Positions 730 to 44,941 of a DNA stretch of 64,000 nt are shown piece after piece (position 1 is the first letter of the stretch; every line of letters begins with the position of its first letter). Location: assembly GCA_031399265.1 (NCBI GenBank), contig JANNOR010000280.1:15378-79377 (forward strand), given 5' to 3'. The notes under the pieces are model-generated. The model searched no databases and had not been told where the DNA came from. It saw nothing but the letters and a program-made list of their open reading frames with translations. The position numbers and the translations under genes were made by a program. The DNA is from Cyanobacteria bacterium SOY_34_metabat_3. Its GTDB lineage: Bacteria > Cyanobacteriota > Cyanobacteriia > Cyanobacteriales > Microcoleaceae.

Positions 730-753
730 AATGGCGGAGGGTAGGAGTAAAAT

Positions 754-1623
754 ATGACGAACTCTAAAGTTATAGTAACCCTGGCAATTGGCAAAAGATA
801 TTTGAAAAATTGGCAAGATTTCTGCGGAGCCAACTGGCAAAAGTATGCCGATCGCCACGGATACGATATTATTTGTATTGAAAAGCCTTTAGATGATTCC
901 GAACGCGCTCAAAAGCGATCGCCCTGCTGGCAAAAGTGTCTGATCCTCGGCGAGGAATCCGTCCAGAAATACGATCGAGTAGTCTGGGTAGATGCAGACG
1001 TTTTGATCAATTGGGCAAATGCTCCTTGTATTGTCGAAGGGGTGGCTGTGGATAAAGTAGGTGCAGCGCCAGAATGGGCAACACCTAACGAGCAGTTATC
1101 TGCCGAAGCTAAAGACAGATTGTTTGAGACGTGGGGAATTACGGACGAAAAAAACGAGCGGGATACTTATGCTAAATACGGTATTGCGCCGGAATTCGAT
1201 CGCATTGTCCAAGATGGTATTATGGTACTGTCGCCGTCTCACCACCGCTCGATTTTAGAAAAAGTTTACCGTGAATGCGAAGAAACAGGATTCGGTGAAA
1301 TGCCTTGGCTTTCTTACGAACTGTTAAAAGCCGATCGCGTTCAATGGATCGATCCGCGATTCAGCACGGTCTGGAGCGTCCACAAAGCTTTGTATTACCC
1401 ATTTTTGCTGCCAAAACCGAAAACAAAAGCCAGTTTGTTCGATCGCGCCAAAGGCAAACTTTTAGCGAAAGGAGTGCCGCCGCGCCTGGTAGACAGGCGG
1501 GCTAGCGAGTGTGCGACGACGGCTTTGATCAATACTTTTTTTCTGCACTTTGCGGGTACTGCGGGAGAAATGAGACTGGTAGACTTAGAATCGACTTCCT
1601 GGCGCGATTTGCGATCGGCTTAA
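754..1623 (+). CDS. Putative GT-A fold glycosyltransferase (GT34/galactosyltransferase-like)
   Basis: WQKCLIL and WVDADVLIN (DxD) motifs, C-terminal FLHFAG; cluster context. Confidence 0.6.
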   Translation: MTNSKVIVTLAIGKRYLKNWQDFCGANWQKYADRHGYDIICIEKPLDDSERAQKRSPCWQKCLILGEESVQKYDRVVWVDADVLINWANAPCIVEGVAVDKVGAAPEWATPNEQLSAEAKDRLFETWGITDEKNERDTYAKYGIAPEFDRIVQDGIMVLSPSHHRSILEKVYRECEETGFGEMPWLSYELLKADRVQWIDPRFSTVWSVHKALYYPFLLPKPKTKASLFDRAKGKLLAKGVPPRLVDRRASECATTALINTFFLHFAGTAGEMRLVDLESTSWRDLRSA

Positions 1624-1721
1624 CCTTTTTTTAGTCGGTGCTGGAAGTACGGTAAATACTCGGAAGTGTTTTTGTACGAAGCGAAATTTGCATACAATTA
1701 TCAAAATAGTAGAGTAGGTAA

Positions 1722-2654
1722 ATGGCCGATTGGCAATTGAAAACTCCCGTCGCATTTATTATTTTTAAACGCCCCGAAGAAACCGAAAGGGTGTTTGCAG
1801 AAATTCGCAAAGTAAAGCCGCCGAAACTGTTAGTAGTTGCTGACGGGCCCCGTGCAGATAAACCGGGGGAAGACCGAGAGTGCGATCGGGCTCGGGCGAT
1901 TATTGACCGAGTAGATTGGGACTGCGAAGTTCTGAAAAATTACGCAGACGTAAATCTGGGCTGTCGGCGGCGGGTTTCTAGCGGTATAGATTGGGTGTTT
2001 GATACGGTTGAAGAGGCAATTATTATTGAGGATGACTGTCTTCCCCATCAGACATTTTTCCGTTTTGCTGAAGAATTGCTCGATCGCTACCGAGACGATG
2101 AAAGAATTATGTCAATCTCCGGTCAAAATGTGCAGTTCGGGCGAAAAAGAACTGACTACAGCTACTACTTTTCTCGCTACAATCACTGCTGGAGTTGGGC
2201 CAGTTGGAGGCGAGCTTGGCAGCACTACGATTTAGATATGAAGCTGTGGCCCGAAATTCGCGACGGTAATTTTTTGGAGGACGTATTGGGAGACTCGCAC
2301 GCTGCAAAAGTTTGGACAAAGACTTTTCAGCTTTGTTATGAACAAAAAATAGATACTTGGGATTTTCAGTGGGCGTTTGCTAGCTTTATTCAAAACGGTA
2401 TGAATATTCTGGCTAATGTCAATTTAACTTCTAACATCGGACACGGTACGGGAGGAACTCACACGGCGGATGTCAGCAGTCCGTACAACAATATGGCCGC
2501 CGAGGCGATCGCATTTCCGTTGAAACACCCGCCCTTTGCAATTCGGGACGCACAAGCCGATAATTTTACTCAAAATACTTTGTATGATTACGATCCGCCG
2601 CTGCTAAAAAAGGTGCAAAAAAAAGTCCATAAACTGTTGAAAAAAAACAAGTAA
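1722..2654 (+). CDS. Nucleotide-diphospho-sugar transferase (HlpA-like glycosyltransferase)
   Basis: PVAFIIFKRP, NLGCRRRVSSGIDWVF, IIIEDDCLP and WGWASW-like motifs. Confidence 0.8.
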   Translation: MADWQLKTPVAFIIFKRPEETERVFAEIRKVKPPKLLVVADGPRADKPGEDRECDRARAIIDRVDWDCEVLKNYADVNLGCRRRVSSGIDWVFDTVEEAIIIEDDCLPHQTFFRFAEELLDRYRDDERIMSISGQNVQFGRKRTDYSYYFSRYNHCWSWASWRRAWQHYDLDMKLWPEIRDGNFLEDVLGDSHAAKVWTKTFQLCYEQKIDTWDFQWAFASFIQNGMNILANVNLTSNIGHGTGGTHTADVSSPYNNMAAEAIAFPLKHPPFAIRDAQADNFTQNTLYDYDPPLLKKVQKKVHKLLKKNK

Positions 2655-2688
2655 AATTAGAAATAAATCTAGAGGACAGATAGGGTAG

Positions 2689-3936
2689 ATGAAGGTTGTA
2701 GTTCTCAATAATTCTGATAGTGAAGGCGGTGCAGCCAGGGCAGCTTACAGGCTGCACCAAGGTTTGCAGGGGATTGGCGTGTCTTCGCAAATGCTGGTGA
2801 AAAATAAGAAAAGCGGCGATCCGAATGTCATATTGTCACAGAATGGCATTGCGAATAAGTTTGATAAGATTATTTCAACTATATCTAACTCGCCATTGCG
2901 GCTTTACCCTAAGAGAAATCCTGTGATATTTTCTCCCCAATGGTTGCCAGATTCCCTAGCTGCGAAAGTTGCCAAAATCCAACCAGATATTATTAATTTG
3001 CACTGGGTTTGCGGGGGTTATATGCAAGTAGAAACCATTCCCAAGTTTAATAAACCCCTAGTCTGGACGCTTCACGATATGTGGTCTTTCACGGGTGGAT
3101 GCCACTACAGCGAAGAGTGCGATCGCTACACTAAATCTTGCGGTAGCTGTCCGCAACTTCACAGCAGCAAAGAGTCCGATCTGTCGCGGTGGGTGTGGGA
3201 GCGGAAAGCGAAAGCTTGGAAAAATATTGACTTAACTGTGGTTAGCCCTAGTGCTTGGTTGGCTAAATGCGCTAGTTCTAGTTCTTTGTTGAAAGATTGT
3301 CGAGTTGAGGTAATTCCTTACGGCATTGATATTAAAACGTACAAACCCATAAATCGTGAATGGGCGCGAGAAATCCTGAATTTACCTAAAGATAAACAAA
3401 TTGTACTCTTTGGAATTGCAGGGGGGACTAGCAACCGCTGGAAAGGATTTAACCTGCTAGTATCGGCTTTGCAAAGCCTGAGCAAGTCGGGCTGGAAAGA
3501 TCGGATAGAGCTGCTGGTTTTTGGTTCTTCTCAACCGGAAAATGCCGTTGAACTGGGTTTTAAAGCTTACTATTTGGGTAATCTAGCAGATGATATCTCC
3601 CTAGCAACAGTTTATGCAGCAGCAGATGTGTTCGTCGCTCCTTCTGTTTACGATAATTTGCCAAACACGGTGATGGAAGCTGGAGCCTGCGGCATTCCTA
3701 GCGTCGCATTCAATATCGGGGGAATGCCGGATCTGATCGAACACTGCTCAAATGGCTACTTAGCGAAACCTTATGAAACAGAAGATTTAGCTACAGGTAT
3801 TGCATGGGTACTGGAAAATCGCGATCGACACCAACAACTCTGCGCTAGGGCGCGTCAGAAAGTGGAACAAGAATTCACTTCAGACATACAAGCTAGGCGC
3901 TATTTGTCTCTTTTTTCCGAACTTGAGGGCGCTTAA
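2689..3936 (+). CDS. GT4 family glycosyltransferase
   Basis: GGAARAAYRLH, WTLHDMWSFTGGCH, DNLPNTVMEA. Confidence 0.9.
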   Translation: MKVVVLNNSDSEGGAARAAYRLHQGLQGIGVSSQMLVKNKKSGDPNVILSQNGIANKFDKIISTISNSPLRLYPKRNPVIFSPQWLPDSLAAKVAKIQPDIINLHWVCGGYMQVETIPKFNKPLVWTLHDMWSFTGGCHYSEECDRYTKSCGSCPQLHSSKESDLSRWVWERKAKAWKNIDLTVVSPSAWLAKCASSSSLLKDCRVEVIPYGIDIKTYKPINREWAREILNLPKDKQIVLFGIAGGTSNRWKGFNLLVSALQSLSKSGWKDRIELLVFGSSQPENAVELGFKAYYLGNLADDISLATVYAAADVFVAPSVYDNLPNTVMEAGACGIPSVAFNIGGMPDLIEHCSNGYLAKPYETEDLATGIAWVLENRDRHQQLCARARQKVEQEFTSDIQARRYLSLFSELEGA

Positions 3937-3950
3937 AACAGCACCGCCCA

Positions 3951-4709
3951 TTAAACCAACTGTTTGCGCTGCTCTGGCGCAGCAAAAAAATTAGACTTTC
4001 TAAATTGTCCGTTTTCTTTAACAAACACCATGTCTACTTGAGCTAAAGCTCCGTCGAGGGGACGGATGTAACCCCCAAAAATATCGTAGGTGGCAAATCC
4101 GCGCTCTTTCATATAACTGACAACATCGTATAATTGCGGGCCCCCGACAAAGAATTGAAACAGGGATACTTCCAGTATGACTACTTCTGTATCCTCAAGC
4201 ACCTTGCGACAGCCGTCTAAAACATTAAGCTCGGCGCCCTGCACGTCAACCTTCAATAAATAAGGCGCTTTTAAGTTTCTTTCCCGGCACAAATCATCAA
4301 CGACAACCAGAGGAATTTCCCTGGGAACACCGTCGGCAACACTACCTTCTGACTCGTTGAGAGTAGAAGATCCGTAAAGTTGAGGGTGAACATTAATCGT
4401 AATATTTCCCGCTTGAGAGCCGGCGCCAGCCATGATATACTGAGCGTTGTATTTTTGACAAATTTCTTTTAAATTTTTCTCGTATTCGATCAAAGGCTCT
4501 ACCAGCAAAAAGTTGGTTTGGGGGAATTTTTCGTACAATTCAAAAGTCCCGTAGGCAACGCCGACATCTATAACGGTTTCTGGTTGAAAACCCAACTTGA
4601 TGAACTGATCGAGTACGCCGTACATAGATGTTCTCATGCCTCGACGCGGGAGATCGAATCCCAAAGGCTTAAGTATTTTGTACGCTATCTTTTTGAGTAT
4701 TTGCCTCAT
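3951..4709 (-). CDS. FkbM family methyltransferase
   Basis: VIDVGVAYG SAM motif, LLKVDVQGAEL; opposite strand to the rest of the cluster. Confidence 0.88.
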   Translation of the reverse strand: MRQILKKIAYKILKPLGFDLPRRGMRTSMYGVLDQFIKLGFQPETVIDVGVAYGTFELYEKFPQTNFLLVEPLIEYEKNLKEICQKYNAQYIMAGAGSQAGNITINVHPQLYGSSTLNESEGSVADGVPREIPLVVVDDLCRERNLKAPYLLKVDVQGAELNVLDGCRKVLEDTEVVILEVSLFQFFVGGPQLYDVVSYMKERGFATYDIFGGYIRPLDGALAQVDMVFVKENGQFRKSNFFAAPEQRKQLV

Positions 4710-4753
4710 TTTTTTTTCCAGACTACAATATTGAATGAAACTATTATAGATTG

Positions 4754-4980
4754 GTCAGGAACTCAGGGCTTAAGCCACTGAGCTTGTAAGAAATTACAAG
4801 CTGTTCTGACCAGACCCCTTTCACGAGGAGACGTTATTTAGGTCACGACACCGGCGAATGCGACGCTAGTTTTGGGCTCTGTCATCTGCAATTAAACAGT
4901 TTTAAAGTCACTGAAACAGTGTTGCAGGTCTAACAAGCCTTTATAACCAGGTCGAAGCGAACATTACCCCGAAAGGGAGA
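4754..4980 (+). ncRNA. IscB-type omegaRNA scaffold (HEARO-like)
   Basis: Nested helices: 4833-4842 with 4938-4947, 4886-4891 with 4922-4927, terminal CCC-GAAA-GGG hairpin; 3' boundary approximate. Confidence 0.72.
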
Positions 4981-5122
4981 GCGAGGCAACCATACCTCTT
5001 TCATGAGGGGCAACCATACCCCTCCAACCCCGCAAGGGGATTTAAGGTGGTTGAAACCGCCCGCGTCGTTTCCCACGATCGGGCTAAAGCCACGCTCGTT
5101 TCCCACTTACCGATTGATTTTG
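4754..5122 (+). mobile_element. Non-autonomous IS200/IS605 element carrying an IscB-type omegaRNA (HEARO-like), no iscB ORF
   Basis: Closing stem GGTCAGGAAC 4753-4762 / GTTCTGACC 4803-4811; GCTTGTAA-GAAA-TTACAAGC hairpin; HEARO-like blocks GACCAG, ACGTTATTTAGGTCACGACACC, CTCTGTC, ATTAAACAG, CGAAGCGAACATTACC; GGCTAAAGCC end hairpin; ATGAA immediately 3'. Confidence 0.75.
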
Positions 5123-6004
5123 ATGAAACCACACAGCACTATAGCAACAATCGTAACTTGCCATAACCGCAAGCAAAAGACCTTAGCTAGTCTCGCGGCG
5201 CTATTCAATCAGGTGCTGCCGGCAGATGTCTTGCTGGTGGCGTACTTAGTGGACGATGCCAGCACTGACGGTACTGCCGAAGCTGTGCAGGAGACTTATC
5301 CGCAAGTTAAGTTGCTGCGCGGAGATGGGAATTTGTTTTGGAATGGGGGAATGCGACAAGGATTTGCTGAAGCCATGAAGCAAAATTATGACTGCTACGT
5401 CTGGCTCAACGATGATACTGTACTGGAACCGTTCGCCTTGAGCACAATGCTAGCAACGTCCCGCTGCTTGGCCGAGCAAGGCGAGACGCGAGCTATTGCA
5501 GTGGGTTCTACTCGTGACTCGGAAACTGGGGCGCTGACTTATGGAGGCTGGTTGCGGACTAGCTGGTGGCATCCTTTGCATTTTCGCTTGGTGACACCGA
5601 TCGCAGAAGCTCAGCAGTGCAGTACGATGAACGGTAACTGCGTTTTGATGCCGCGAGCAGTAGTTGAAGTAGTGGGAAACCTAGACCCCGCATTCATCCA
5701 CAGCATGGGAGATATTGACTACGGTTTGCGAGCGGTGCAACAAAATTGTACAGTTTGGGTGGTTCCTGGATACGTGGGCACCTGCTCGACCAACCCGCCG
5801 GAGGGTAACTGCTGGGAAGACCCGAACATGAGTTTGCTCGATCGATTTAAAAAGGTACTGCAACCGAAGGGTTTTGGGCCAAAAGAGTCGAAAGTGCTCG
5901 TACAGCGGCACACAAATATCTTGTGGCCGATATATTGGCTGTTACCTTATTTGAGGTTGATTTTGATCTCGGTTCGCCGAGGATCTGTAGGCTATCGCGG
6001 CTGA
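5123..6004 (+). CDS. GT2 family glycosyltransferase
   Basis: TCHNRK, VDDASTDGT, GNLFWNGGM, WLNDD motifs; start placed at ATG 5123 because the 5003 extension lies in the omegaRNA element. Confidence 0.88.
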   Translation: MKPHSTIATIVTCHNRKQKTLASLAALFNQVLPADVLLVAYLVDDASTDGTAEAVQETYPQVKLLRGDGNLFWNGGMRQGFAEAMKQNYDCYVWLNDDTVLEPFALSTMLATSRCLAEQGETRAIAVGSTRDSETGALTYGGWLRTSWWHPLHFRLVTPIAEAQQCSTMNGNCVLMPRAVVEVVGNLDPAFIHSMGDIDYGLRAVQQNCTVWVVPGYVGTCSTNPPEGNCWEDPNMSLLDRFKKVLQPKGFGPKESKVLVQRHTNILWPIYWLLPYLRLILISVRRGSVGYRG

Positions 6005-6092
6005 TAGTATTTTTGCAAGCACAGGGAATGGGGAAGATTTTTTGGCGATACCGCTGGCTTTCTTGTCGTCGCTACAACTAAAGGTGAACCGA

Positions 6093-7244
6093 ATGGATGA
6101 ACTCCGCATCGCTTGGCTTGTCCCGGAAGTGGGCCTGGGAGCTTACTGGCAGCCTGTTTTGAGAGAATTTACGAAAGTGTTTAAAAATACTGTGTTCTAC
6201 ACCGGCGGTGTCTGGCCGGGATTCGACCCAAAAATGCCTGGTTCGTCGGCCATTCAGCTAGTAGGGAAGACGAGTTTTGTCGAAACGACAAAGATAAATA
6301 CAGGCTATGATCGCGGATTCATTGTAGTATCGCCTAGGATTATCGGTTATCTACTCAAATTTCGTCCTCAAGTCGTATTTCCCCAAGCTTTCTCTTTGTG
6401 GACTGTAATTGTGGCTTTGTTAAAACCACTGATGGGATGGAAAATTGCGATTATTTATGATGGCAGTTCCCCGAATACAGACTTTAGAGATTCCAGTTTT
6501 CGGACATTTGTACGCCGCATACTTGTGCGGTTTGCCGATGCTTTTGTTTCTAACAGCAATGCTGGCAAACAATATCTGATGGAAGCGCTTAACGTACCCG
6601 AAAAAAAAATTTTTACTAGAACCTATCTTGTCCCGGATGCGGGAGCTTTAATGAAGCAATTGGATCAAACTAAGCCGCCAAAATTGCAGTTAAAACGTCC
6701 TATTTTTCTGTATGTAGGGCGCATCACGGCTAGAAAGGGAATTAAGACACTTTTAGAAGCTTGCGCTATTCTTAAAAATCAAGGTTATGCTGATTATTCG
6801 CTGTTGATTGTTGGCAAGGGAGATCAGCGGGAGGAACTGGAAGCTTTTATTAAAGAGCGCAATTTTGAAGAGCAGGTAACTTGGGCCGGATGGGTGGAAT
6901 ATGGAAGTTTGGGTGCTTACTTTCAGCAAGCTGATGTTTTTGTATTCCCTACTTTTGAGGATGTCTGGGGAATGGTGGTACCGGAGGCGATGGTTTTTGG
7001 CAAACCTGTACTCTGCTCAAATGGTGCAGCTTCCTGCGAATTGATTGCTGAAGGTGAGAATGGTTATATTTTCGATCCTAAAGACTCTCAAGGCTTGGCC
7101 TCGGCGATGCGGCGTTTTTTGGACAATCCAGATTTGATTGAGTCGATGGGAGAGCGATCGCGCGAATTAATTGCTCAAACAACTCCCGAAACAGCCGCCC
7201 AAGCTTATGTCGAAGTAACATCATTTTTAATGGTTAGTGGTTAA
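6093..7244 (+). CDS. GT4 family glycosyltransferase
   Basis: FLYVGRI, FPTFEDVWGMVVPEAM; likely start ATG 6093. Confidence 0.9.
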   Translation: MDELRIAWLVPEVGLGAYWQPVLREFTKVFKNTVFYTGGVWPGFDPKMPGSSAIQLVGKTSFVETTKINTGYDRGFIVVSPRIIGYLLKFRPQVVFPQAFSLWTVIVALLKPLMGWKIAIIYDGSSPNTDFRDSSFRTFVRRILVRFADAFVSNSNAGKQYLMEALNVPEKKIFTRTYLVPDAGALMKQLDQTKPPKLQLKRPIFLYVGRITARKGIKTLLEACAILKNQGYADYSLLIVGKGDQREELEAFIKERNFEEQVTWAGWVEYGSLGAYFQQADVFVFPTFEDVWGMVVPEAMVFGKPVLCSNGAASCELIAEGENGYIFDPKDSQGLASAMRRFLDNPDLIESMGERSRELIAQTTPETAAQAYVEVTSFLMVSG

Positions 7245-7325
7245 GCTGTTGTAGATAGTAGAAAAAAAACAGCGTTTTTAAGTAACCAACCAAAACTAAC
7301 CACTGACCACAAATTAAAAACTCAA

Positions 7326-7446
7326 GGTGCATCTCTATTTTGCACAAGGGCGAAGCATTTCGGCAGACAATTTATTAGTTATAACCAGAGGTTTACTGCC
7401 GAAATGCTTCGCCCCTACGAATATATTTGCAAAAATGAGATGCACC
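7326..7446. repeat. ~120-bp MITE/REP doublet with terminal IR GGTGCATCTC...GAGATGCACC
   Basis: Internal IR GGGCGAAGCATTTCGGCAG / CTGCCGAAATGCTTCGCCC; inverted second copy at 36155-36273. Confidence 0.8.
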
Positions 7447-7492
7447 CAAAACTCACGGCTAACAACTAACAACTAACAACTAACAATTGCCG

Positions 7493-8722
7493 ATGAAAAT
7501 TCTTTTATCTGCCTTTGCTTGCGAACCCGGACAAGGATCTGAGGAAGGAGTGGGCTGGAATGCGGTGGTAGAAGCCGCAAAACATCAGGATGTATGGGTA
7601 ATAACTCGCACCTTTTACCGTACCGCTATTGAAGCCTTCCTCGCCGCGTGCCCGATCGCTAACCTGCACTTCGTGTACATTGAGCCTTTCGGCTGGAGTG
7701 AAAACTTTAAAGGCAGACAGGGAGGGCTGCAACTGCACTATTACCTGTGGCAAATTTTGGCTTATCAAGAGGCGCGGGAACTCCACCGCCAAATTAATTT
7801 CGACATCGCCCGCCACGTCACCTACGTTAAATTTTGGTCGCCGAGCTTCATCTCGCTGCTGCCTATTCCTTTTATTTGGGGGCCTGTGGGCGGCGGTGAA
7901 GCTGCCCCGAAACCTTTTTGGGAAGATTTTAGCTCCAAGGCAAAACTTTACGAAACAGCGCGAGATTGGGGGCAGCGCCTCGGTGAGAGAGATCCGTTTG
8001 CGAGGATGACGGCTCAAAGAAGCGTCTTAGCTTTGGCGACAACGGATGACACGGCGAAGCGGGTGCGGGCGATGGGGGCTAAAAAGGTGCAGGTGCTTTC
8101 GGAGGCGTGTCTGTCGGAGGAAGAGATGGCGCGGCTGGGAGAGTGCCAGATGCCAGGGGATTCGCCGATCAGGTTCATCAGTATGGGGCGGCTGCTGCAC
8201 TGGAAAGGCTATCACCTCGCGCTGCGGGCCTTTGCCCGAGCTAACTTGCCGAATGCTGAATATTGGCTGCTGGGGGATGGCCCGGAACGCGATCGGCTTC
8301 AGTCTTTAGCGCAAGAATTGGGCATTGCTTCTCAAGTTAAGTTGTGGGGGAGGCTGCCGCGCGAGGAAAGTTTGGGGAAGTTAGGGGAGTCTCATGTACT
8401 GATTCACCCTAGCTTGCACGATTCAGGGGGGTGGACGTGTCTGGAGGGGATGGCGGCGGGGCGTCCGATCGTCTGTTTGGATCTGGGAGGGCCTGCTACT
8501 CAAGTGACTGCCAAAACTGGGGTAAAAGTACCTGCTTGCAATCCAGAACAGGCTGTGCAGGGTCTAGCTGAGGCTCTAGCTGATTTGGCCGGCGATGCCG
8601 AGTTGCGATCGCGATTGGGTGAAGCAGGTCGAAATCACGTCAGGGAAGTATATGACTCGGATGTTAAAGGTAAATTCTTTGCTCAATTGTGCGAAGATAT
8701 AGTCTATCGAAAATCTGGGTGA
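7493..8722 (+). CDS. GT4 family glycosyltransferase
   Basis: MKILLSAFACEPGQGSE, SMGRLLHWKG, HPSLHDSGGWTCLEGM. Confidence 0.9.
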   Translation: MKILLSAFACEPGQGSEEGVGWNAVVEAAKHQDVWVITRTFYRTAIEAFLAACPIANLHFVYIEPFGWSENFKGRQGGLQLHYYLWQILAYQEARELHRQINFDIARHVTYVKFWSPSFISLLPIPFIWGPVGGGEAAPKPFWEDFSSKAKLYETARDWGQRLGERDPFARMTAQRSVLALATTDDTAKRVRAMGAKKVQVLSEACLSEEEMARLGECQMPGDSPIRFISMGRLLHWKGYHLALRAFARANLPNAEYWLLGDGPERDRLQSLAQELGIASQVKLWGRLPREESLGKLGESHVLIHPSLHDSGGWTCLEGMAAGRPIVCLDLGGPATQVTAKTGVKVPACNPEQAVQGLAEALADLAGDAELRSRLGEAGRNHVREVYDSDVKGKFFAQLCEDIVYRKSG

Positions 8723-8781
8723 TATCTGATTTGTTCGATCGCACAAAACAAAGAAAACCATATTTTTTCAGGCGGTGAAAC

Positions 8782-9864
8782 GTGAGCGTTGCAATCATTA
8801 CGGGTTCTGCGGGTTTAATAGGCTCTGAGGCTTGTAAGTTCTTTGCCAAACAAGGCTTAGATATAGTTGGTATCGACAACAATATGCGCCAGTTTTTTTT
8901 TGGTGCTGATGGTTCTACAAACTGGAACCGCCAACTGCTCGAAAAGTCCTTGGGTACCAAGTATTATCACTTAGATGTGGACATTCGCGACTACGAAGCG
9001 ATTACCAATATTTTTCAGCGGTACGGCGAGTCGATCGAGTTAGTAATCCACACGGCAGCCCAACCGAGCCACGATTGGGCCGCCCGCGCTCCCAAAATAG
9101 ATTTTACCGTCAACGCTAACGGTACTCTCAATCTTTTAGAAGCAACTCGCTTGTACTGTCCCAAAGCGGTTTTCATTTTCACTTCTACTAATAAAGTATA
9201 CGGCGATACGCCGAACAAATTGCCTTTAATTGAATTAGAACACAGGTGGGAAATTGAATCGGGACACACTTACGAAAACGGGATTCGGGAAGATATGTCG
9301 ATCGACCAGTGCCTGCACAGTTTGTTTGGTGCTTCCAAAGTAGCCGCTGACATTTTAGTTCAAGAATACGGCCGTTATTTTAATATGAACACCGCTTGTT
9401 TTCGCGGCGGCTGCTTGACGGGACCAAATCACTCAGGAGCTCAACTACACGGCTTCCTCGCCTACTTGATGAAGTGCGCCGTGACGGGAACTCCTTACAC
9501 CGTGTTTGGCTACAAAGGCAAGCAAGTCCGGGATAACATTCACAGCGCTGATTTAATTTCGGCATTTTATGAATTTTATAAAGCTCCTAGAAGCGCCCAA
9601 GTTTACAATACAGGAGGAGGCAGATACAGCAATTGTTCGATGATAGAAGCTATCCAGATGTGCGAATCAATTGCGGAACGCAAATTTAATTGGACTTATG
9701 CTGAAGACAACCGCATGGGCGATCACATTTGGTGGATTAGCGACAATTCAAAATTTTCCAGTCACTATCCTGACTGGAAAATGAAATATAACGTCAAACA
9801 AATCCTGCAAGAAATTTATGACTGTAACCGCGAGCGTTGGCTGAAGGAGGAATCGAAGGATTGA
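8782..9864 (+). CDS. NAD-dependent epimerase/dehydratase (CDP-paratose 2-epimerase/RfbE-like)
   Basis: TGSAGLIG Rossmann motif, [23 protein letters not shown]. Confidence 0.88.
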
Positions 9865-9974
9865 GCGAAAAAGCATCTGGAGAGAATTGCGGTAAACGTT
9901 TCAAGAGAATGTTAAATCAATCCTAAAGGAGATTTATGAATGTAATGCCGAGCGTGGGCTTAAAGAGGTGTTCC

Positions 9975-10781
9975 ATGATTGATAAAGGGAAAAAAAATGT
10001 ACTCGGCATATTAGTAGATGCCGTTAATTATGAAGCGGCTGTGGACAAAATTATTGTGGCAGCTAGCGCCAGGAAACCGCTGTCAGTTTCGGCTCTAGCG
10101 GTTCACGGAGTCATGACAGGGGTGCTCGATCGCACTCACCGCTATCGGATTAATCACATTGATTTAGTATTGCCGGACGGACAGCCGGTCAGGTGGGCGT
10201 TAAATTTGCTCTACAATACGGAATTGCCCGATCGAGTTTGCGGGCCGAATGCGATGCTGCAAATCTGCGAACGCGCGGCCGAGGAAGGATTGTCTATCTA
10301 TTTGTACGGCTCCAAAGATTCTGTGCTGGAGGCTTTATCTAGCAATCTTTGCCAGCGTTATCCCAAGTTAATTATTGCTGGAACTCAGCCTTCTAAATTC
10401 AGGCACGTTAAGCCCGAAGAAAAACAGGAAATTGCGCGGCAAATTCGCGATAGCGGTGCAGCAATTACTTTTGTTGGTTTGGGGTGTCCGCGACAAGAAG
10501 TTTGGGCTTATGAATACCGCGACGATTTATCAATGCCGCTGATTGCTGTAGGTGCTGCTTACGATTTTCATGCCGGTAATTTGGCTAAATCTCCAGATTT
10601 TTTAGGTAAGATAGGTTTGGAATGGTTGTTTCGGCTGATTATGGAACCCAGGCGTCTTTGGCAGCGGTATGTTTTGTTGAATCCGCTTTACGTCTGGCTG
10701 TTTTTGCTGCAAGCTTTGAAAATAAAAGAGTTCGACCCCAAAGACGCCACTGCGCCAGTGGAAGAAGTATTGTATGGTTAA
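9975..10781 (+). CDS. WecB/TagA/CpsF family glycosyltransferase
   Basis: PDGQPVRW, RVCGP, VGLGCPRQE, GLEWLFRL. Confidence 0.92.
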   Translation: MIDKGKKNVLGILVDAVNYEAAVDKIIVAASARKPLSVSALAVHGVMTGVLDRTHRYRINHIDLVLPDGQPVRWALNLLYNTELPDRVCGPNAMLQICERAAEEGLSIYLYGSKDSVLEALSSNLCQRYPKLIIAGTQPSKFRHVKPEEKQEIARQIRDSGAAITFVGLGCPRQEVWAYEYRDDLSMPLIAVGAAYDFHAGNLAKSPDFLGKIGLEWLFRLIMEPRRLWQRYVLLNPLYVWLFLLQALKIKEFDPKDATAPVEEVLYG

Positions 10782-10960
10782 AATTTCATTTATCTGTTGT
10801 GAATTTACAGTTTTGACAAATAAAAAGCCAAAAGCCAAAAGTAAAAGTAATTATTAATTATTTTTACTTTCGACTTGAAAGTTATGACGATTAAAATCTA
10901 GAATTTATGGGTTGTTTTCTGTGACTTCTGTTGTACTTGGTGTGTAACTTACTATTTATG

Positions 10961-36120: not shown

Positions 36121-36520
36121 ATATCAATTCCGGCGGTGCCGGAATGATCAGCGGGGAGCATCCCATTTTTGCAAAAATACTCGTAGGGGCGAAGCATTTC
36201 GGCAGTAAATCTCTGGTTATCACTAATAAATTATCTGCCGAAATGCTTCGCCCTTTCCAAATTGAGATGCACCCGATAAGCGAGGACACTCAAGATGCCG
36301 TTTCCCTAGCGTAATTAATCGTAGGGACACGGCAGTGCCGTGTCCTGATTTGGGGTAATATTAATTCCGATGCAACCGGAATTGATATCATTAGTAATAC
36401 CAAATCCGGTTGAGAAACCTCTTTCGATCAGAATCGGCGGTTGAAACTGCTGCTAAATAAACGAATTTGTCCTTCGCTGACTCAAGAATAAATCGGTATT
36501 AAAGTCGGATTTGGTAAAAT
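36121..36520. repeat. Nested cluster of MITE/REP elements
   Basis: GGTGCATCTC-family copy (36155-36273) lies inside an ATATCAATTCC-family copy (36121-36388), followed by TACCAAATCCG...CGGATTTGGTA. Confidence 0.75.
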
Positions 36521-42794: not shown

Positions 42795-42905
42795 CTTAGC
42801 TCAGCAAAATTGGTAATGCCTAGATCGGTAATTTAAGTTTTGTCAAGTTTCTATTTTTTATACAGAGAAGCTAGCGTTATAATAAAAATTTTATCGGAGG
42901 TAAAA

Positions 42906-43373
42906 ATGAGCGAAAAAAGTCCAGGATACAAAATTGTTAGCGATAACCGACAAGCGCGCCATCTCTATGAAATCATAGAGACATTTCAGGTGGGTATCGA
43001 ATTGAAGGGAACCGAAGTAAAATCAATTCGGGAAGGAAAAGCCAATTTGCGGGACGGATATGGCTTAGTTCGGAATGGCGAAATCTGGCTGATCAACGTT
43101 CATATTTCTCCCTGGAGAAGTGCTAGCAACTATTTCAATCACGAACCCCGCCGCACCCGCAAATTGCTGATGCACAAGCAAGAAATTCGCAAATTAATCG
43201 GCAAAGTAGAAGAAAAAGGCTTGACTTTAGTGCCGTTAAAAATGTATTTGAAAGGCGGCTGGGTAAAACTTGATATTGGTTTGGGGAAAGGTAAAAAACT
43301 GTACGACAAGCGCGAAGATTTGAAGAAACGGGAAGACAAGCGGGATATGGAACGCGCGATGAAGCAATTTTAG
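42906..43373 (+). CDS. smpB: SsrA-binding protein
   Basis: DNRQARHLYEI, GIELKGTEVKS, HEPRRTRKLLMH, KGKKLYDKRE. Confidence 0.97.
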   Translation: MSEKSPGYKIVSDNRQARHLYEIIETFQVGIELKGTEVKSIREGKANLRDGYGLVRNGEIWLINVHISPWRSASNYFNHEPRRTRKLLMHKQEIRKLIGKVEEKGLTLVPLKMYLKGGWVKLDIGLGKGKKLYDKREDLKKREDKRDMERAMKQF

Positions 43374-43526: not shown

Positions 43527-44936
43527 CAAAAAGATGGGATTCAAGCCCCGTCCTTTTAGGACGGCTTTTCTTCCTTAAGTTTATCAATCCAGTCCTCTAC
43601 AAGTTGGGTCATCGTTTTCTCTTTCTGTTTGGCAATTCTCCGTAACTTCTCTAGCCGACTCACGGCAATGCGAATACTTAATCTTTCTTTAGTCATTGGG
43701 CTACCCAATTGCTACTCTACTATGTGATCATAGTAAGCATGAAAGCAAGATACCAGTACCGTTTCTATCCAACAAGCCAGCAGCAACAGAGCTTAGCTCA
43801 GTTGTTCGGTTGCGTTCGTGTTGTGTATAACGATGCCCTTGCAATCTGTAAACAATCAGAAAAGAAGCCTAAGTCGGCAGAACTTCAAAAGATTGTTATT
43901 ACTCAGGCAAAAAAAACTGAGGCAAGAGCTTGGCTTAGTGAAGTCTCAAACATACCTTTACAGCAATCTGTAGCGGACTTAGAAACGGCTTTTAAGAACT
44001 TCTTTAACTCCTGCAAAGGAAAGCGGAAGGGTCGCAAAGTTGGGTATCCTAAATTCAAGAAAAGAACAAACAGTCAATCGGCACGATTTAGAATTGGAGG
44101 TTTTTCTCTTAAGAATGGCGGTGTTTATTTAGCCAAGATTGGTATTGTCAACCCAATATGGTCGAGAAGCCTCCCGTCCGAGCCTAGCTCTGTCACAGTA
44201 ATTAAAGATTGTGCAAACCGCTATTTTTTGAGTTTTGTTGTAGAAGTTCAACCAATTCAGATTGAGACAAAAAATCCGAGTATCGGAATCGATTTAGGGA
44301 TTAAAACCTTTGCAGTAATGAGTAATGGTGAGAAAGCTGAAAGCCCTAGCTACAAAAAGTTAGACCAGAAAGTTCGCAAGCTACAACGCAAATTAGCTCG
44401 CCAACCCAAAGATTCCAAGAGAAGGAATATAACTTGCATTAGAATCGCCAAGCTGCACAATCGAATTGCGGATACCCGTAAAGACTTCCTGCACAAATTG
44501 TCAACCAAAATAGTCAACGAAAACCAAGTGATTGTTTTGGAAGATTTGAATGTATCAGGGATGGTCAAGAATCGAAAACTTGCTAGGGCGATTAGTCAGC
44601 AAGGATGGAGAGAATTCAGGACTCTCTGTGAAGCTAAATCCGAAAAGTTTGGTAGAGAGTTCAAAGTAATTAGTCGATGGGAACCTACTAGCCAAGTGTG
44701 TGCGGATTGTGGGTTTAAGTGGGGTAAAATTGATTTATCTATTCGTTCAGTGCTTTGTTTAAATTGCGGTACTGAACAAGACAGAGACGAAAATGCTGCT
44801 AGGAATATAGAAAAAGTCGGGATGGGGAATCGCCACGACTCTAAACGGACGCAGAGGGATTGTCAGACTATTTCGGTAGCAGAACCCGATGAAGCGTCAA
44901 GAATCACCGCTCATAAGAGGACGGTGAGTATTTCAA
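43527..44936 (+). mobile_element. IS200/IS605 family element (tnpB, no tnpA) with a small divergent RHH gene
   Basis: TTGAC at 43522-43526, then left end CAAAAAGATGGGATTCAAGCCCCGTCCTTTTAGGACGG; right end hairpin TCACCGC..CGGTGA ending TTTCAA; no target-site duplication. Confidence 0.9.
43556..43696 (-). CDS. 46-aa ribbon-helix-helix (CopG-like) protein, below the ORF-track cutoff
   Basis: Manual translation MTKERLSIRIAVSRLEKLRRIAKQKEKTMTQLVEDWIDKLKEEKPS; alternating beta strand followed by two helices. Confidence 0.72.
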   Translation of the reverse strand: MTKERLSIRIAVSRLEKLRRIAKQKEKTMTQLVEDWIDKLKEEKPS

Positions 44937-44941
44937 CTTAG
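43739..44941 (+). CDS. tnpB: RNA-guided endonuclease TnpB
   Basis: YRFYPT HTH, GIDLG (RuvC-I D), LEDLNV (RuvC-II E), CADCG/CLNCG zinc finger, DRDENAARNI (RuvC-III D). Confidence 0.96.
   Translation: MKARYQYRFYPTSQQQQSLAQLFGCVRVVYNDALAICKQSEKKPKSAELQKIVITQAKKTEARAWLSEVSNIPLQQSVADLETAFKNFFNSCKGKRKGRKVGYPKFKKRTNSQSARFRIGGFSLKNGGVYLAKIGIVNPIWSRSLPSEPSSVTVIKDCANRYFLSFVVEVQPIQIETKNPSIGIDLGIKTFAVMSNGEKAESPSYKKLDQKVRKLQRKLARQPKDSKRRNITCIRIAKLHNRIADTRKDFLHKLSTKIVNENQVIVLEDLNVSGMVKNRKLARAISQQGWREFRTLCEAKSEKFGREFKVISRWEPTSQVCADCGFKWGKIDLSIRSVLCLNCGTEQDRDENAARNIEKVGMGNRHDSKRTQRDCQTISVAEPDEASRITAHKRTVSIST

Follow-up and report, generated by a model that had tools for sequence, protein, structure and literature searches.

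A probable IscB-derived mini-transposon carrying an omegaRNA scaffold separates the start codon of a cyanobacterial glycosyltransferase gene from the 5' leader

INTRODUCTION

In ISGst5-type elements, such as that of GstIscB from Geobacillus stearothermophilus, an RE-bounded omegaRNA of the HEARO type is located upstream of iscB, and the guide is taken from the flanking DNA, 5' of the scaffold; the TAM of GstIscB, TTCAT, lies 5' of LE, and most copies lack tnpA, the transposase being provided in trans (bioRxiv 10.1101/2023.03.14.532601). The same work describes PATEs, protein-less IS200/IS605 derivatives that carry omegaRNAs, and proposes that these RNAs are used in trans by the nucleases of other elements. 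In IStrons, IS607/IS605 elements are joined to group I introns, and this architecture makes it less costly for the transposon to reside within a host gene or beside it (PMC13565253).

How a guide that lies outside an IscB transposon gets transcribed is an open question, on which the docking of such elements at gene start codons, described below, has a bearing. The locus studied here belongs to a cyanobacterial stretch of 64 kb (the window), whose positions are used throughout.

RESULTS

An orphan HEARO scaffold upstream of a GT2 gene

The only match above the gathering threshold in an Rfam cmscan of the whole window was the HEARO RNA (RF02033), at positions 4754 to 4967 of the plus strand. With 130.3 bits (gathering cutoff, 83), an E value of ∼1e-28, and coverage of model positions 1 to 211 of 211, this match corroborates the HEARO/omegaRNA-like fold that a first-pass annotation had claimed for the region. 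A permissive Rfam search of positions 4500 to 5400 returned HEARO plus a chance-level match to CRISPR-DR36 (E = 0.72) in the middle module of the element (see below). When 41 orphan copies were analyzed with RNAalifold, the nested helices were kept, and 21 of 77 pairs showed compensatory changes on both sides. Orphan scaffolds scored 122 to 145 bits, compared with 127 to 159 bits for those linked to iscB.

The orphan status proposed in the same annotation was also borne out. The ORF that follows the scaffold is the GT2 gene, and a related IscB used as the tblastn query had no match anywhere in the 64-kb window, in which no iscB was found. The adjacent downstream HNH/RuvC (IscB) ORF that characterizes the HEARO family, found at L047, L025, L045, and other loci, is therefore missing here. 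No tnpA was detected among the window ORFs scanned. The annotation had also likened the junction to those of two TnpB elements; one TnpB gene was found, at positions 43709 to 44941, and neither tblastn nor Pfam scans of 20 window ORFs revealed a second TnpB element; blastn found no second copy of the intergenic region within the window.

The scaffold is flanked by a divergent gene for an fkbM-type methyltransferase (positions 3951 to 4709, minus strand; Pfam PF05050, E = 3e-16) and by the GT2 glycosyltransferase gene (5123 to 6004, plus strand; Pfam PF00535 and PF13641), which encodes 293 amino acids from its native ATG. Upstream of it, the GT2 frame of the filled allele is open as far as an ATG at position 5003, within the element. 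That the ATG of the motif flanking the element is the native GT2 start, as had been suggested, is supported by the position of the Pfam GT2 domain, which starts 7 to 10 residues after it. GT2 orthologues (89 to 91% identical) begin at the same ATG, and the empty allele carries an in-frame TGA 6 codons upstream of it. The MAG annotation, for its part, gives a truncated GT2 product of 251 amino acids.

Empty alleles delimit a 369-bp insertion

The empty allele was reached by using the fkbM neighbor as the query against metagenome contigs; the 293-amino-acid GT2 protein gave no match in such a search. The empty site predicted beforehand, ...TATTATAGATTG|ATGAAACC, was recovered, position 4753 being joined to 5123 in four independent empty alleles. 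The sources were Logan contig L005, a 369-bp skipping joint (4750 to 5120) in run X5, and JGI metagenome loci L123, L124, and L126. One of the four was found together with the filled allele in a single metagenome; the other three are from relatives that are 86 to 94% identical. Filled and empty alleles thus coexist in one population, in which the joint reached a depth of 483 versus ∼820 for the flanks (X5).

Since the empty alleles join 4753 to 5123, the insert comprises positions 4754 to 5122. The junction is ambiguous by 3 nt (TTG), and these exact ends were assigned because the family consensus starts with GTCAG. The insertion is precise: the empty site is scarless, neither a target-site duplication nor terminal inverted repeats are present, and the insert sits exactly between the GT2 gene and that gene's 5' leader. 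On the minus strand, the reading TTCAT|CAAAATC is present at 5127 to 5116, as claimed. The target site and predicted TAM is ATGAA at 5123 to 5127 of the plus strand (TTCAT on the minus strand), of which 5123 to 5125 are the GT2 start codon. This motif occurs once in the empty alleles, where only 44 nt separate the fkbM start codon from that of GT2. We consider it likely that positions 4754 to 5122 represent a 369-bp nonautonomous mini-transposon of the IS200/IS605 type, PATE/MITE-like and derived from IscB (HEARO) elements, made up of the omegaRNA scaffold, a hairpin module, and an LE-type tail.

Anatomy of the element

The hairpin at 4762 to 4782 (CTCAGGGC-TTAA-GCC(A)CTGAG) is subterminal, at a distance of 8 nt from the end of the element. 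It is of the RE type that a Y1 transposase would recognize and is at the same time the first inner helix of the omegaRNA. Its DNA fold is strong (z = −4.1 and −4.4 for the two strands), and a similar hairpin was observed in the tails of the family consensus and of the full-length element L047.

Downstream of the scaffold, a 94-nt module specific to the mini-element family (4968 to 5061, plus strand) is conserved in 41 copies. It contains the hairpins CCC-GAAA-GGG (4968 to 4977), two with the identical loop CAACCAUA (4983 to 4998 and 5005 to 5024), CCCC-GCAA-GGGG (5028 to 5039), and GGTG-GTTGAAAC-CGCC (5046 to 5061). In this module 92% of the cells were paired, versus 37 to 57% in slid controls, and 10 pairs showed compensatory change. 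Sequence comparison revealed no counterpart of the module in L047; its last hairpin, GGTG-GTTGAAAC-CGCC, is also found 3' of the iscB stop codon in L088.

The LE-type tail (5062 to 5122) contains GTTTCCC direct repeats around an imperfect hairpin, followed by CCCACTTACCGATTGATTTTG. It is common to full-length IscB elements, with 81% identity to the final 60 nt of L047. In the window copy the LE hairpin is weak (z, approximately −1.2); in the family consensus it is strong and conserved, with covariation (helices 8 and 9). Subterminal imperfect hairpins, a feature of IS200/IS605 (PATE-like) elements, are thus present at both ends, that of RE with a z value of approximately −4. At the HEARO end, the foot of the hairpin is 8 nt away from the cleavage site, and at the tail this distance is ∼24 nt; the two values resemble the 10 nt at RE and 19 nt at LE of IS608.

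Two further structures were considered and discarded. The T-run of the tail was dropped as an intrinsic terminator, given that a terminator scan detected none in positions 4400 to 5300 and that the hairpin is ∼20 nt away from the T-run. A long-range pairing of 262 to 266 with 433 to 437, as numbered by RNAalifold, was rejected, the pair counts favoring local hairpins.

A multicopy family with full-length IscB relatives

A scan of one genome per species yielded 117 loci, mainly in Microcoleus and other Oscillatoriales. Among the copies recovered, 41 distinct mini-elements share 75 to 90% identity, measure 360 to 395 bp, start with GTCAG, and end in ...CCCACTTACCGAGnTTTTTT. In DNA metagenomes, the HEARO core had 10 to 40 times the depth of the flanking genes, and flanks other than that of the window adjoin position 4754. 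In a plasmid collection, HEARO matches were partial only and lacked useful annotation.

Full-length elements of 1.6 kb, with a 423-amino-acid IscB and the same ends, occur in Microcoleus and other cyanobacteria. L047 consists of a HEARO scaffold 92.5% identical to that of the window, the 423-amino-acid IscB, and the same tail, ending TTTTTT|ATGA; its IscB contains Pfam RRXRR (3e-74) and HNH domains and matches IscB entries in the PDB down to 1e-37. L088 is an intermediate in which an internal iscB deletion has removed IscB residues 147 to 309.

Deletion derivatives of this sort, together with an iscB remnant of ∼70 codons in run X6, speak for the possibility that a full-length IscB element once stood at the window locus and lost its nuclease gene after insertion. 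We regard such an in situ deletion as very improbable: at least 40 copies at unrelated sites have the same 94-nt module and the same internal junctions, the module is without counterpart in the full-length element, and no iscB fragment is detectable in positions 4968 to 5122. The module and junctions being common to unrelated sites, the mini form was amplified as a unit.

Target motif and docking at start codons

The flank was RTGA in all 57 independent insertions, with A favored at +5; the count was made with a regular expression that required [AG]TGA, and an alignment-based extraction shows the same flank. RTGA (TCAY on the other strand) also adjoins the tail in at least 15 full-length elements. 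ATGA(A) is thus an invariant target of the family, and its predicted function as the TAM-side motif is suggested by the conservation of the flank and by the distant GstIscB.

In ∼65% of the 57 insertions, the ATG of the flank is the start codon of a gene, versus ∼13% expected from nondisruptive ATGA sites (P, ∼1e-20), and the docked insertions are sense oriented. The genes downstream of docked elements are intact and include those for HU, trigger factor, and CobQ. Several insertions are common to different species-level genomes (e.g., L022, L042, L070, and L081). Docking was also observed in approximately 7 of 15 full-length IscB elements. The HEARO/IscB transposons of cyanobacteria, and in particular the protein-less derivatives of 370 bp, can tentatively be seen as "start-codon dockers." Docking at ATGA, usually a start codon plus A, would then ensure that a host promoter transcribes the external 5' guide, that is, the leader of the gene, while the conserved end of the element (GAG, T-run, and ATG) would replace the displaced ribosome-binding site, so that the gene would survive. 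A full-text literature search found no relevant report tying HEARO to ATGA or cyanobacterial IscB to start codons. The HEARO description by Weinberg et al. in 2009 may already have noted insertion next to ATGA or GTGA.

The bias could also reflect the choice of target by the transposase, through an extended motif or a locally single-stranded, AT-rich stretch at gene starts, instead of selection for transcription or tolerance; we hold this possibility to be as tentative as the docking reading itself. The flank logo is A/T rich at +5 to +9, and the bias affects mini and full-length elements alike, both of which would be expected from target choice. On the other hand, no bases are conserved beyond RTGA(A) on either side, and 8 of the 20 nonstart insertions still lie <250 nt upstream of a co-oriented ORF, which is easier to reconcile with a need for sense transcription than with a sequence motif.

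Promoter-like site and predicted guide

A sigma-70-like site, TTGCCT-17-TACAAT, was identified at 4701 to 4729 of the plus strand by a consensus scan (9 of 12 matches), which gave 3 sites versus 0.9 expected in shuffled sequences. The region of this site is conserved in the empty orthologous loci L123, L124, and L126. Transcription is predicted to start near position 4736, which would place a leader of ∼17 nt before the scaffold. As a consensus match, the site is compatible with a putative co-transcript of guide, scaffold, and GT2. The predicted guide segment, AAACTATTATAGATTG (4738 to 4753, plus strand), adjoins the 5' end of the scaffold and corresponds to the final 16 nt of the native leader of GT2; in all four empty alleles it runs straight into ATGAAAC. 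Both the co-transcription with GT2 and the length of the guide are deduced from this arrangement.

Helper nuclease and transcripts

The filled allele was present in runs X1, X3, and X6 at depths of 24, 8, and 1,067, respectively. Contigs with iscB of the L047 or L025 type (≥80 to 85% identity) were absent from these three runs save for a 5' remnant of 210 nt, in a contig search that detects close relatives of the L047/L025 iscB and shows presence rather than absence. The remnant, about 70 codons long, was found in X6 at strain depth. Among the runs examined, only the mixed population X5 contained an intact iscB, at a depth of 440. L047-type genes, in elements with matching ends, exist in relatives; no intact close iscB was found in X1, X3, or X6. 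Thus, the helper IscB may be missing in the strain with the window insertion, and since no closely related intact iscB is detectable there, the element may now be a transcribed passenger in the GT2 5' leader. That an IscB from another locus uses its RNA in trans, as first proposed, is hypothetical.

In metatranscriptomes, RNA contigs of the HEARO region were thousands deep, versus 5 to 50 for flanking genes, in contigs that are unstranded, lack 5'-end information, sum over many copies, and belong to a related strain.

The great abundance of this RNA and the failure to detect a closely related iscB in runs holding dozens of copies raise the question of whether the element is an IscB-independent 5'-leader module, either co-opted or behaving as such, that docks between leader and start codon and rides on the host promoter. 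It would provide a replacement initiation region (GAG, a T-rich spacer of 7 to 8 nt, and ATG), and its structured RNA would stabilize or regulate the downstream gene. The excess of sense start codons at insertions, the intact downstream ORFs, essential-type genes included, the insertions common to different species-level genomes, and the conserved 94-nt hairpin module missing from full-length elements would all be in accordance with this role. We nevertheless think it unlikely. Polymorphism within a population and empty alleles in close relatives indicate a recent and dispensable insertion, the docked genes have no common function, and both transposon ends are kept along with the entire nuclease-binding scaffold. 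Furthermore, full-length IscB elements dock likewise, and docking therefore belongs to the transposon itself rather than to a domesticated derivative.

DISCUSSION

The features of the probable mini-transposon suggest how it reached its site and how its RNA may act. It keeps both ends needed by a Y1 TnpA, namely RE, which corresponds to the 5' part of the omegaRNA scaffold, and the LE-type tail, and it retains the whole omegaRNA without iscB. Its insertion, which left no target duplication, took place immediately upstream of ATGA on the plus strand, or 3' of TCAT as seen from the strand of the transposase; the target ATGA here consists of the GT2 start codon and the base after it. If transcribed from the GT2 promoter, the omegaRNA would have as its guide the final 16 to 17 nt of the native leader, since IscB guides sit 5' of the scaffold, outside the element. 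The guide sequence followed by ATGAA (target plus predicted TAM) exists only in the empty allele. Given a cognate IscB, the RNA could direct the cutting of empty or excised sites, and the insertion would thereby be restored or spread. Such "restorative homing" logic has been shown for IS200/IS605 nucleases.

This natural locus displays OMEGA logic with unusual clarity: the filled allele occurs alongside the empty one, and the sequence directly shows the scaffold together with the predicted guide and TAM. The finding that about two-thirds of the insertions are docked and co-oriented with intact genes suggests that guide expression is tied to host promoters at a low cost to the host. If the start-codon docking reading is true, it would explain how IscB elements secure the expression of their guides, and the elements would be natural 5'-leader cassettes, highly expressed and persisting even in strains that have lost IscB. 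If confirmed, the apparent persistence and high expression of dozens of intact orphan scaffolds in populations without a detected close IscB would point to long-lived parasitism on a lost helper, to the use of a divergent nuclease, or to a role independent of any nuclease. Engineers of IscB editors may also take an interest in the compact scaffolds and the predicted ATGA(A) TAM.

Orphan omegaRNA elements and the TTCAT TAM have already been described, and the interesting part is the family-wide docking at start codons. Like the ISGst5-type elements, the window element has an RE-bounded omegaRNA, and its minus-strand TTCAT is identical to the GstIscB TAM; it differs from them in its size of 369 bp, the absence of iscB, the extra 94-nt module, and its cyanobacterial lineage, and it is known here from sequence. 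With PATEs it shares the lack of coding capacity, the subterminal hairpins, and a retained guide-RNA scaffold. However, the statement on PATEs covers TnpB-type RNAs at the 3' (RE) side, whereas the window carries an IscB-type RNA, the guide of which is 5' and external to the element and must therefore be transcribed from a host promoter. The nested helices and the multicopy occurrence in filamentous cyanobacteria are those of the HEARO RNA family (RF02033), although the adjacent HNH ORF that defines it is missing at the window locus. With regard to OgeuIscB-omegaRNA (PDB 7XHT, 7UTN, and 8CSZ), the L047 IscB is homologous (E, ∼1e-25), with RuvC/RRXRR and HNH domains; the similarity is distant, and the window encodes no protein partner. 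Finally, the resemblance to IStrons is in concept only, as an OMEGA-bearing transposon tolerated at a host gene: the element has no intron, and its tolerance would come from docking at the start codon and not from splicing.

Locus and RNA identity

The insert lies between two divergent genes, an FkbM-type methyltransferase gene (fkbM, 3951-4709, minus strand) on its 5' side and a family-2 glycosyltransferase gene (GT2, plus strand, from ATG 5123), which encodes a Pfam GT2 domain and is the next ORF 3' of the insert. The window, DNA of a filamentous cyanobacterium, has a G+C content of 45.6% and contains the HIP1 octamer GCGATCGC 37 times; genes for polysaccharide biosynthesis are clustered at its positions 750-10800 (several GT4 glycosyltransferases, GT2, FkbM and a NAD-dependent epimerase/dehydratase).

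The sole above-threshold match to an Rfam covariance model in the entire 64 kb was HEARO (RF02033) at 4754-4967 on the plus strand, with 130.3 bits (cut-off, 83), an E value of ~1e-28 and all 211 model positions aligned. HEARO is the RNA now called IscB omegaRNA (bioRxiv 10.1101/2023.03.14.532601; PMC13565253). No iscB was found in the window and no tnpA among the window ORFs scanned, and tblastn with a related IscB gave no similarity across the whole 64 kb. Since the locus has the RNA of the HEARO family but lacks the adjoining ORF of that family, it was counted as an orphan. The full-length match and the absence of iscB anywhere in the window thus confirm, far beyond chance, the IscB-type omegaRNA without iscB described in the first-pass annotation.

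Minus-strand TTCAT|CAAAATC at the insert, which that annotation had likened to the junctions of two TnpB elements in the window, was borne out by the sequence. Just 3' of smpB (42840-43373) there is one TnpB gene (43709-44941, plus strand; OrfB_IS605, Cas12f1-like TNB and HTH domains); a second was not found by tblastn or by Pfam scans of 20 window ORFs. Alignment of contig L001 to the window also revealed an intergenic repeat of ~122 bp, present at both 7326-7447 and 36154-36273 with 91% identity, which may be another small repeat family.

Empty alleles and the GT2 start codon

A search of public assemblies with the fkbM protein yielded five contigs. The MAG contig of GCA_043751495.1 contained the insert and was 99.98% identical to the window, three Logan contigs ended 49 nt inside the insert, and contig L005 read ...gaaactattatagattg|atgaaaccacacagc, with window position 4753 fused directly to 5123. 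When metagenome contigs of run X5 were mapped onto the region, an identical joint skipping 369 bp was observed at a depth of 483 beside flanks of ~820; this single population thus contains both alleles, filled and empty. In JGI metagenomes, a protein-guided scan rendered three further orthologous loci (DNA identity, 86 to 94%), all of them empty and with the identical junction, which makes the empty state ancestral and the insertion recent. The empty site is exactly the one that had been predicted from the window, 4753 being joined to 5123 in every case. No target duplication accompanied the insertion. The joint is ambiguous by 3 nt (TTG), and the limits were fixed at 4754-5122 because every member of the element family starts with GTCAG.

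DNA and RNA contigs of several communities stop exactly at the element boundaries (4652-4753 and 5120-5124; runs X5 and X16-X19), as expected if both alleles co-occur in these communities too. In the RNA runs, contig ends near 5121 could possibly be a real transcript 5' end.

In the empty allele, no more than 44 nt separate the fkbM and GT2 start codons. The GT2 ATG is preceded there, six codons upstream, by an in-frame TGA, and the Pfam GT2 domain begins 7 to 10 residues past this ATG; both features argue for ATG 5123 as the native GT2 start. When the insert is present, the GT2 frame is open upstream to ATG 5003 within the element, with a possible 40 extra residues. For its part, the public MAG annotation gives a truncated GT2 product of 251 amino acids starting near window position 5249 (L001:1706-2461); gene callers were probably misled by the insertion.

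A family of protein-less elements

In DNA metagenomes the depth of the HEARO core was 10 to 40 times that of the single-copy genes beside it, and loose ends were observed, with foreign flanks adjoining 4754 and with other copies whose ...CCGAGCTTTTTTT end leads into ATGAAC. Some loose ends at 4753 (runs X1, X3 and X5) showed another copy's scaffold start directly after an element-tail-like ...CCCACTTACCAGAACATATTGATTGTG; tandem elements also occur in locus L112 (2513-3292), where 55 nt separate two mini copies.

A scan with a 22-mer from the scaffold, using one genome per species, rendered at least 117 loci, those among the matches listed belonging almost throughout to Microcoleus or other Oscillatoriales. 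The mini elements comprised at least 41 distinct sequences of 360 to 395 bp, collinear with the window element end to end at 75 to 90% identity. Among the matches listed, a variant of ~430 bp accounted for at least 23 sequences and iscB was present in ~22 loci. The full-length element of L047, a locus from an Oscillatoriales MAG, measures 1,590 bp and consists of a HEARO 92.5% identical to that of the window, a 423-amino-acid protein with Pfam RRXRR (3e-74) and HNH domains that is homologous to solved IscB structures, and a tail of 82 nt whose end reads CCCACTTACCGAGCTTTTTT|ATGA; the window element has the scaffold and the final ~60 nt in common with L047. The HEARO element of L088 (296-1395) has an internal iscB deletion (residues 147 to 309). 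Its end is still TTTTTT|ATGA, with the ATG opening an ORF of 213 codons, and it resembles a transitional form between full-length and mini elements.

Positions 4968-5061 are conserved across the mini family but are not matched in the full-length element. A GNRA-capped hairpin, compensated in L047, lies directly 3' of the Rfam model. Two adjacent hairpins with covarying stems and an identical 8-nt loop, CAACCAUA (4983-4998 and 5005-5024), are kept in the mini family and absent from full-length IscB elements. Also within 4968-5061 are a CCCC-GNRA-GGGG hairpin and a GGCG-GTTGAAA-CGCC hairpin, the latter of which recurs after the iscB stop codon in L088. The module structure made up of all these hairpins paired in 92% of cells, compared to 37 to 57% in slid controls, and ten pairs showed compensatory change, compared to three or four. 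Neither the twin-loop hairpins nor the module had an Rfam match.

Near each end is an imperfect hairpin of similar sequence, CTCAGGnC-TAAA-GnC(n)CTGAG, spaced by 8 nt at the scaffold end and by ~24 nt at the tail end, distances that we take, from IS608, to be RE-like and LE-like, respectively. HEARO is bounded by RE, and the TAM of GstIscB, TTCAT, lies 5' of LE (Meers et al., bioRxiv 10.1101/2023.03.14.532601). The locus shows the structural features of a nonautonomous IS200/IS605 element. The paired end hairpins, their RE/LE-like spacing, the TTCAT flank and the ends common to L047 all point to a protein-less IS200/IS605 derivative, comparable to PATEs, with an IscB-type omegaRNA.

Insertion at start codons

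Grouping by flank of the copies among the matches listed gave 57 independent insertions. The 3' flank was RTGA in all 57 (A51/G6, T57, G57, A57), a count that is partly by construction, as the regular expression demanded [AG]TGA; A was favored at +5, and the 5' flank had no consensus. Alignment-based extraction, empty alleles and flanking ATGs matching recognizable protein N termini agree, which argues that the boundary at RTGA is right.

The flanking ATG opened a long ORF in 37 or 38 of the 57 insertions (65%; loci L006-L122 among the matches listed, e.g., L093, L101, L082, L054 and L015, and window position 5123), the docked genes being intact and co-oriented with the element. Native N termini were recognizable in many of these, including HU (MNKGELVDAVAEK), trigger factor (MKVTQEKLP), CobQ, HoxH and an EF-G-like GTPase. 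Background ATGA sites in the same loci, with the preceding base outside any ORF of ≥100 amino acids, opened ≥90 codons in only 13% of cases, a figure that still includes the docked sites (binomial P, ~1e-20). Among the other 20 insertions, 8 lay <250 nt 5' of a co-oriented ORF. The ...TTTT|ATGA ending is also that of full-length IscB elements, ~7 of 15 of which sit where a long ORF begins; thus, docking is a trait of the transposon lineage. Shine-Dalgarno-like motifs were present in the 5' flanks of 12 of 37 docked copies, about twice the 15% background, which is consistent with entry of the element between the start codon and its ribosome-binding site. We infer that the displaced site could be replaced by the conserved end of the element (GAG, a T-rich spacer of 7 to 8 nt and ATG).

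Proposed guide and helper nuclease

Orphan scaffolds scored 122 to 145 bits, compared to 127 to 159 for iscB-linked ones, and keep their helices through compensatory changes. In metatranscriptomes, HEARO-region contigs were thousands deep, compared to 5 to 50 for neighboring genes, these depths being summed over copies of a related strain and carrying no strand or end information. These data are consistent with a functional RNA.

IscB guides are encoded beyond the element, on the 5' side of the scaffold. Here the guide would be the last 16 to 17 nt of the native GT2 leader (~4738-4753), and its target with TAM (guide sequence followed by ATGAA) is present in the empty allele alone. The empty orthologues conserve a promoter-like site, TTGCCT-17-TACAAT (4701-4729), a consensus match that is not evidence of function; transcription from it would begin near 4736, producing a guide-length leader for which processing would be unneeded. 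If a cognate IscB were available, excised or empty sites would be cut under the guidance of the RNA, and the element would then be restored by repair from a filled copy. Such a cut-then-restore mechanism has been shown for IS200/605 nucleases (Meers et al., bioRxiv 10.1101/2023.03.14.532601).

The contigs of four metagenomes were mapped onto the two closest full-length iscB genes among the matches listed (L047:250-1950 and L025:7040-8000). X5, a mixed population that also has the empty allele, contained an intact iscB contig of 1,413 nt (~94% identity; depth, 440, about half the population depth). The filled allele reached depths of 24 in X1, 8 in X3 and 1,067 in X6, and in these runs intact L047- or L025-type iscB was not seen, with essentially nothing at ≥80 to 85% identity among contigs, which can miss things. 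The exception in X6 was a 404-nt contig at strain depth (1,042) with a rearranged HEARO and only the first ~70 iscB codons. The simplest reading is that a closely related IscB was lost from the strain while dozens of orphan scaffolds were kept; a divergent IscB is possible. Accordingly, the proposed use in trans by an IscB encoded elsewhere is plausible in the lineage and putative for this genome.

Comparison with known systems

The anatomical part of the first-pass annotation (RNA type, exact boundaries, empty site and native start codon) held in detail, and its functional part was supported only in part. The searchable literature yielded no account of start-codon docking in quantitative terms, of the hairpin module specific to mini elements or of apparent persistence without a cognate nuclease; the 2009 HEARO paper is said to have perhaps remarked already on ATGA or GTGA beside the element. 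The main value lies in the family-wide docking pattern and in a locus where the question of guide expression becomes directly testable.

Orphan omegaRNA elements are already an acknowledged class, and the TTCAT TAM of Geobacillus IscB is known; this TAM, as measured for GstIscB, matches the flank of the window element. Protein-less elements with TnpB-type RNAs have been described, together with the proposal that these RNAs depend on use in trans (Meers et al., bioRxiv 10.1101/2023.03.14.532601). The published inference of trans use for such PATE-type elements concerns TnpB-type RNAs, whereas the RNA of the window is of the IscB type.
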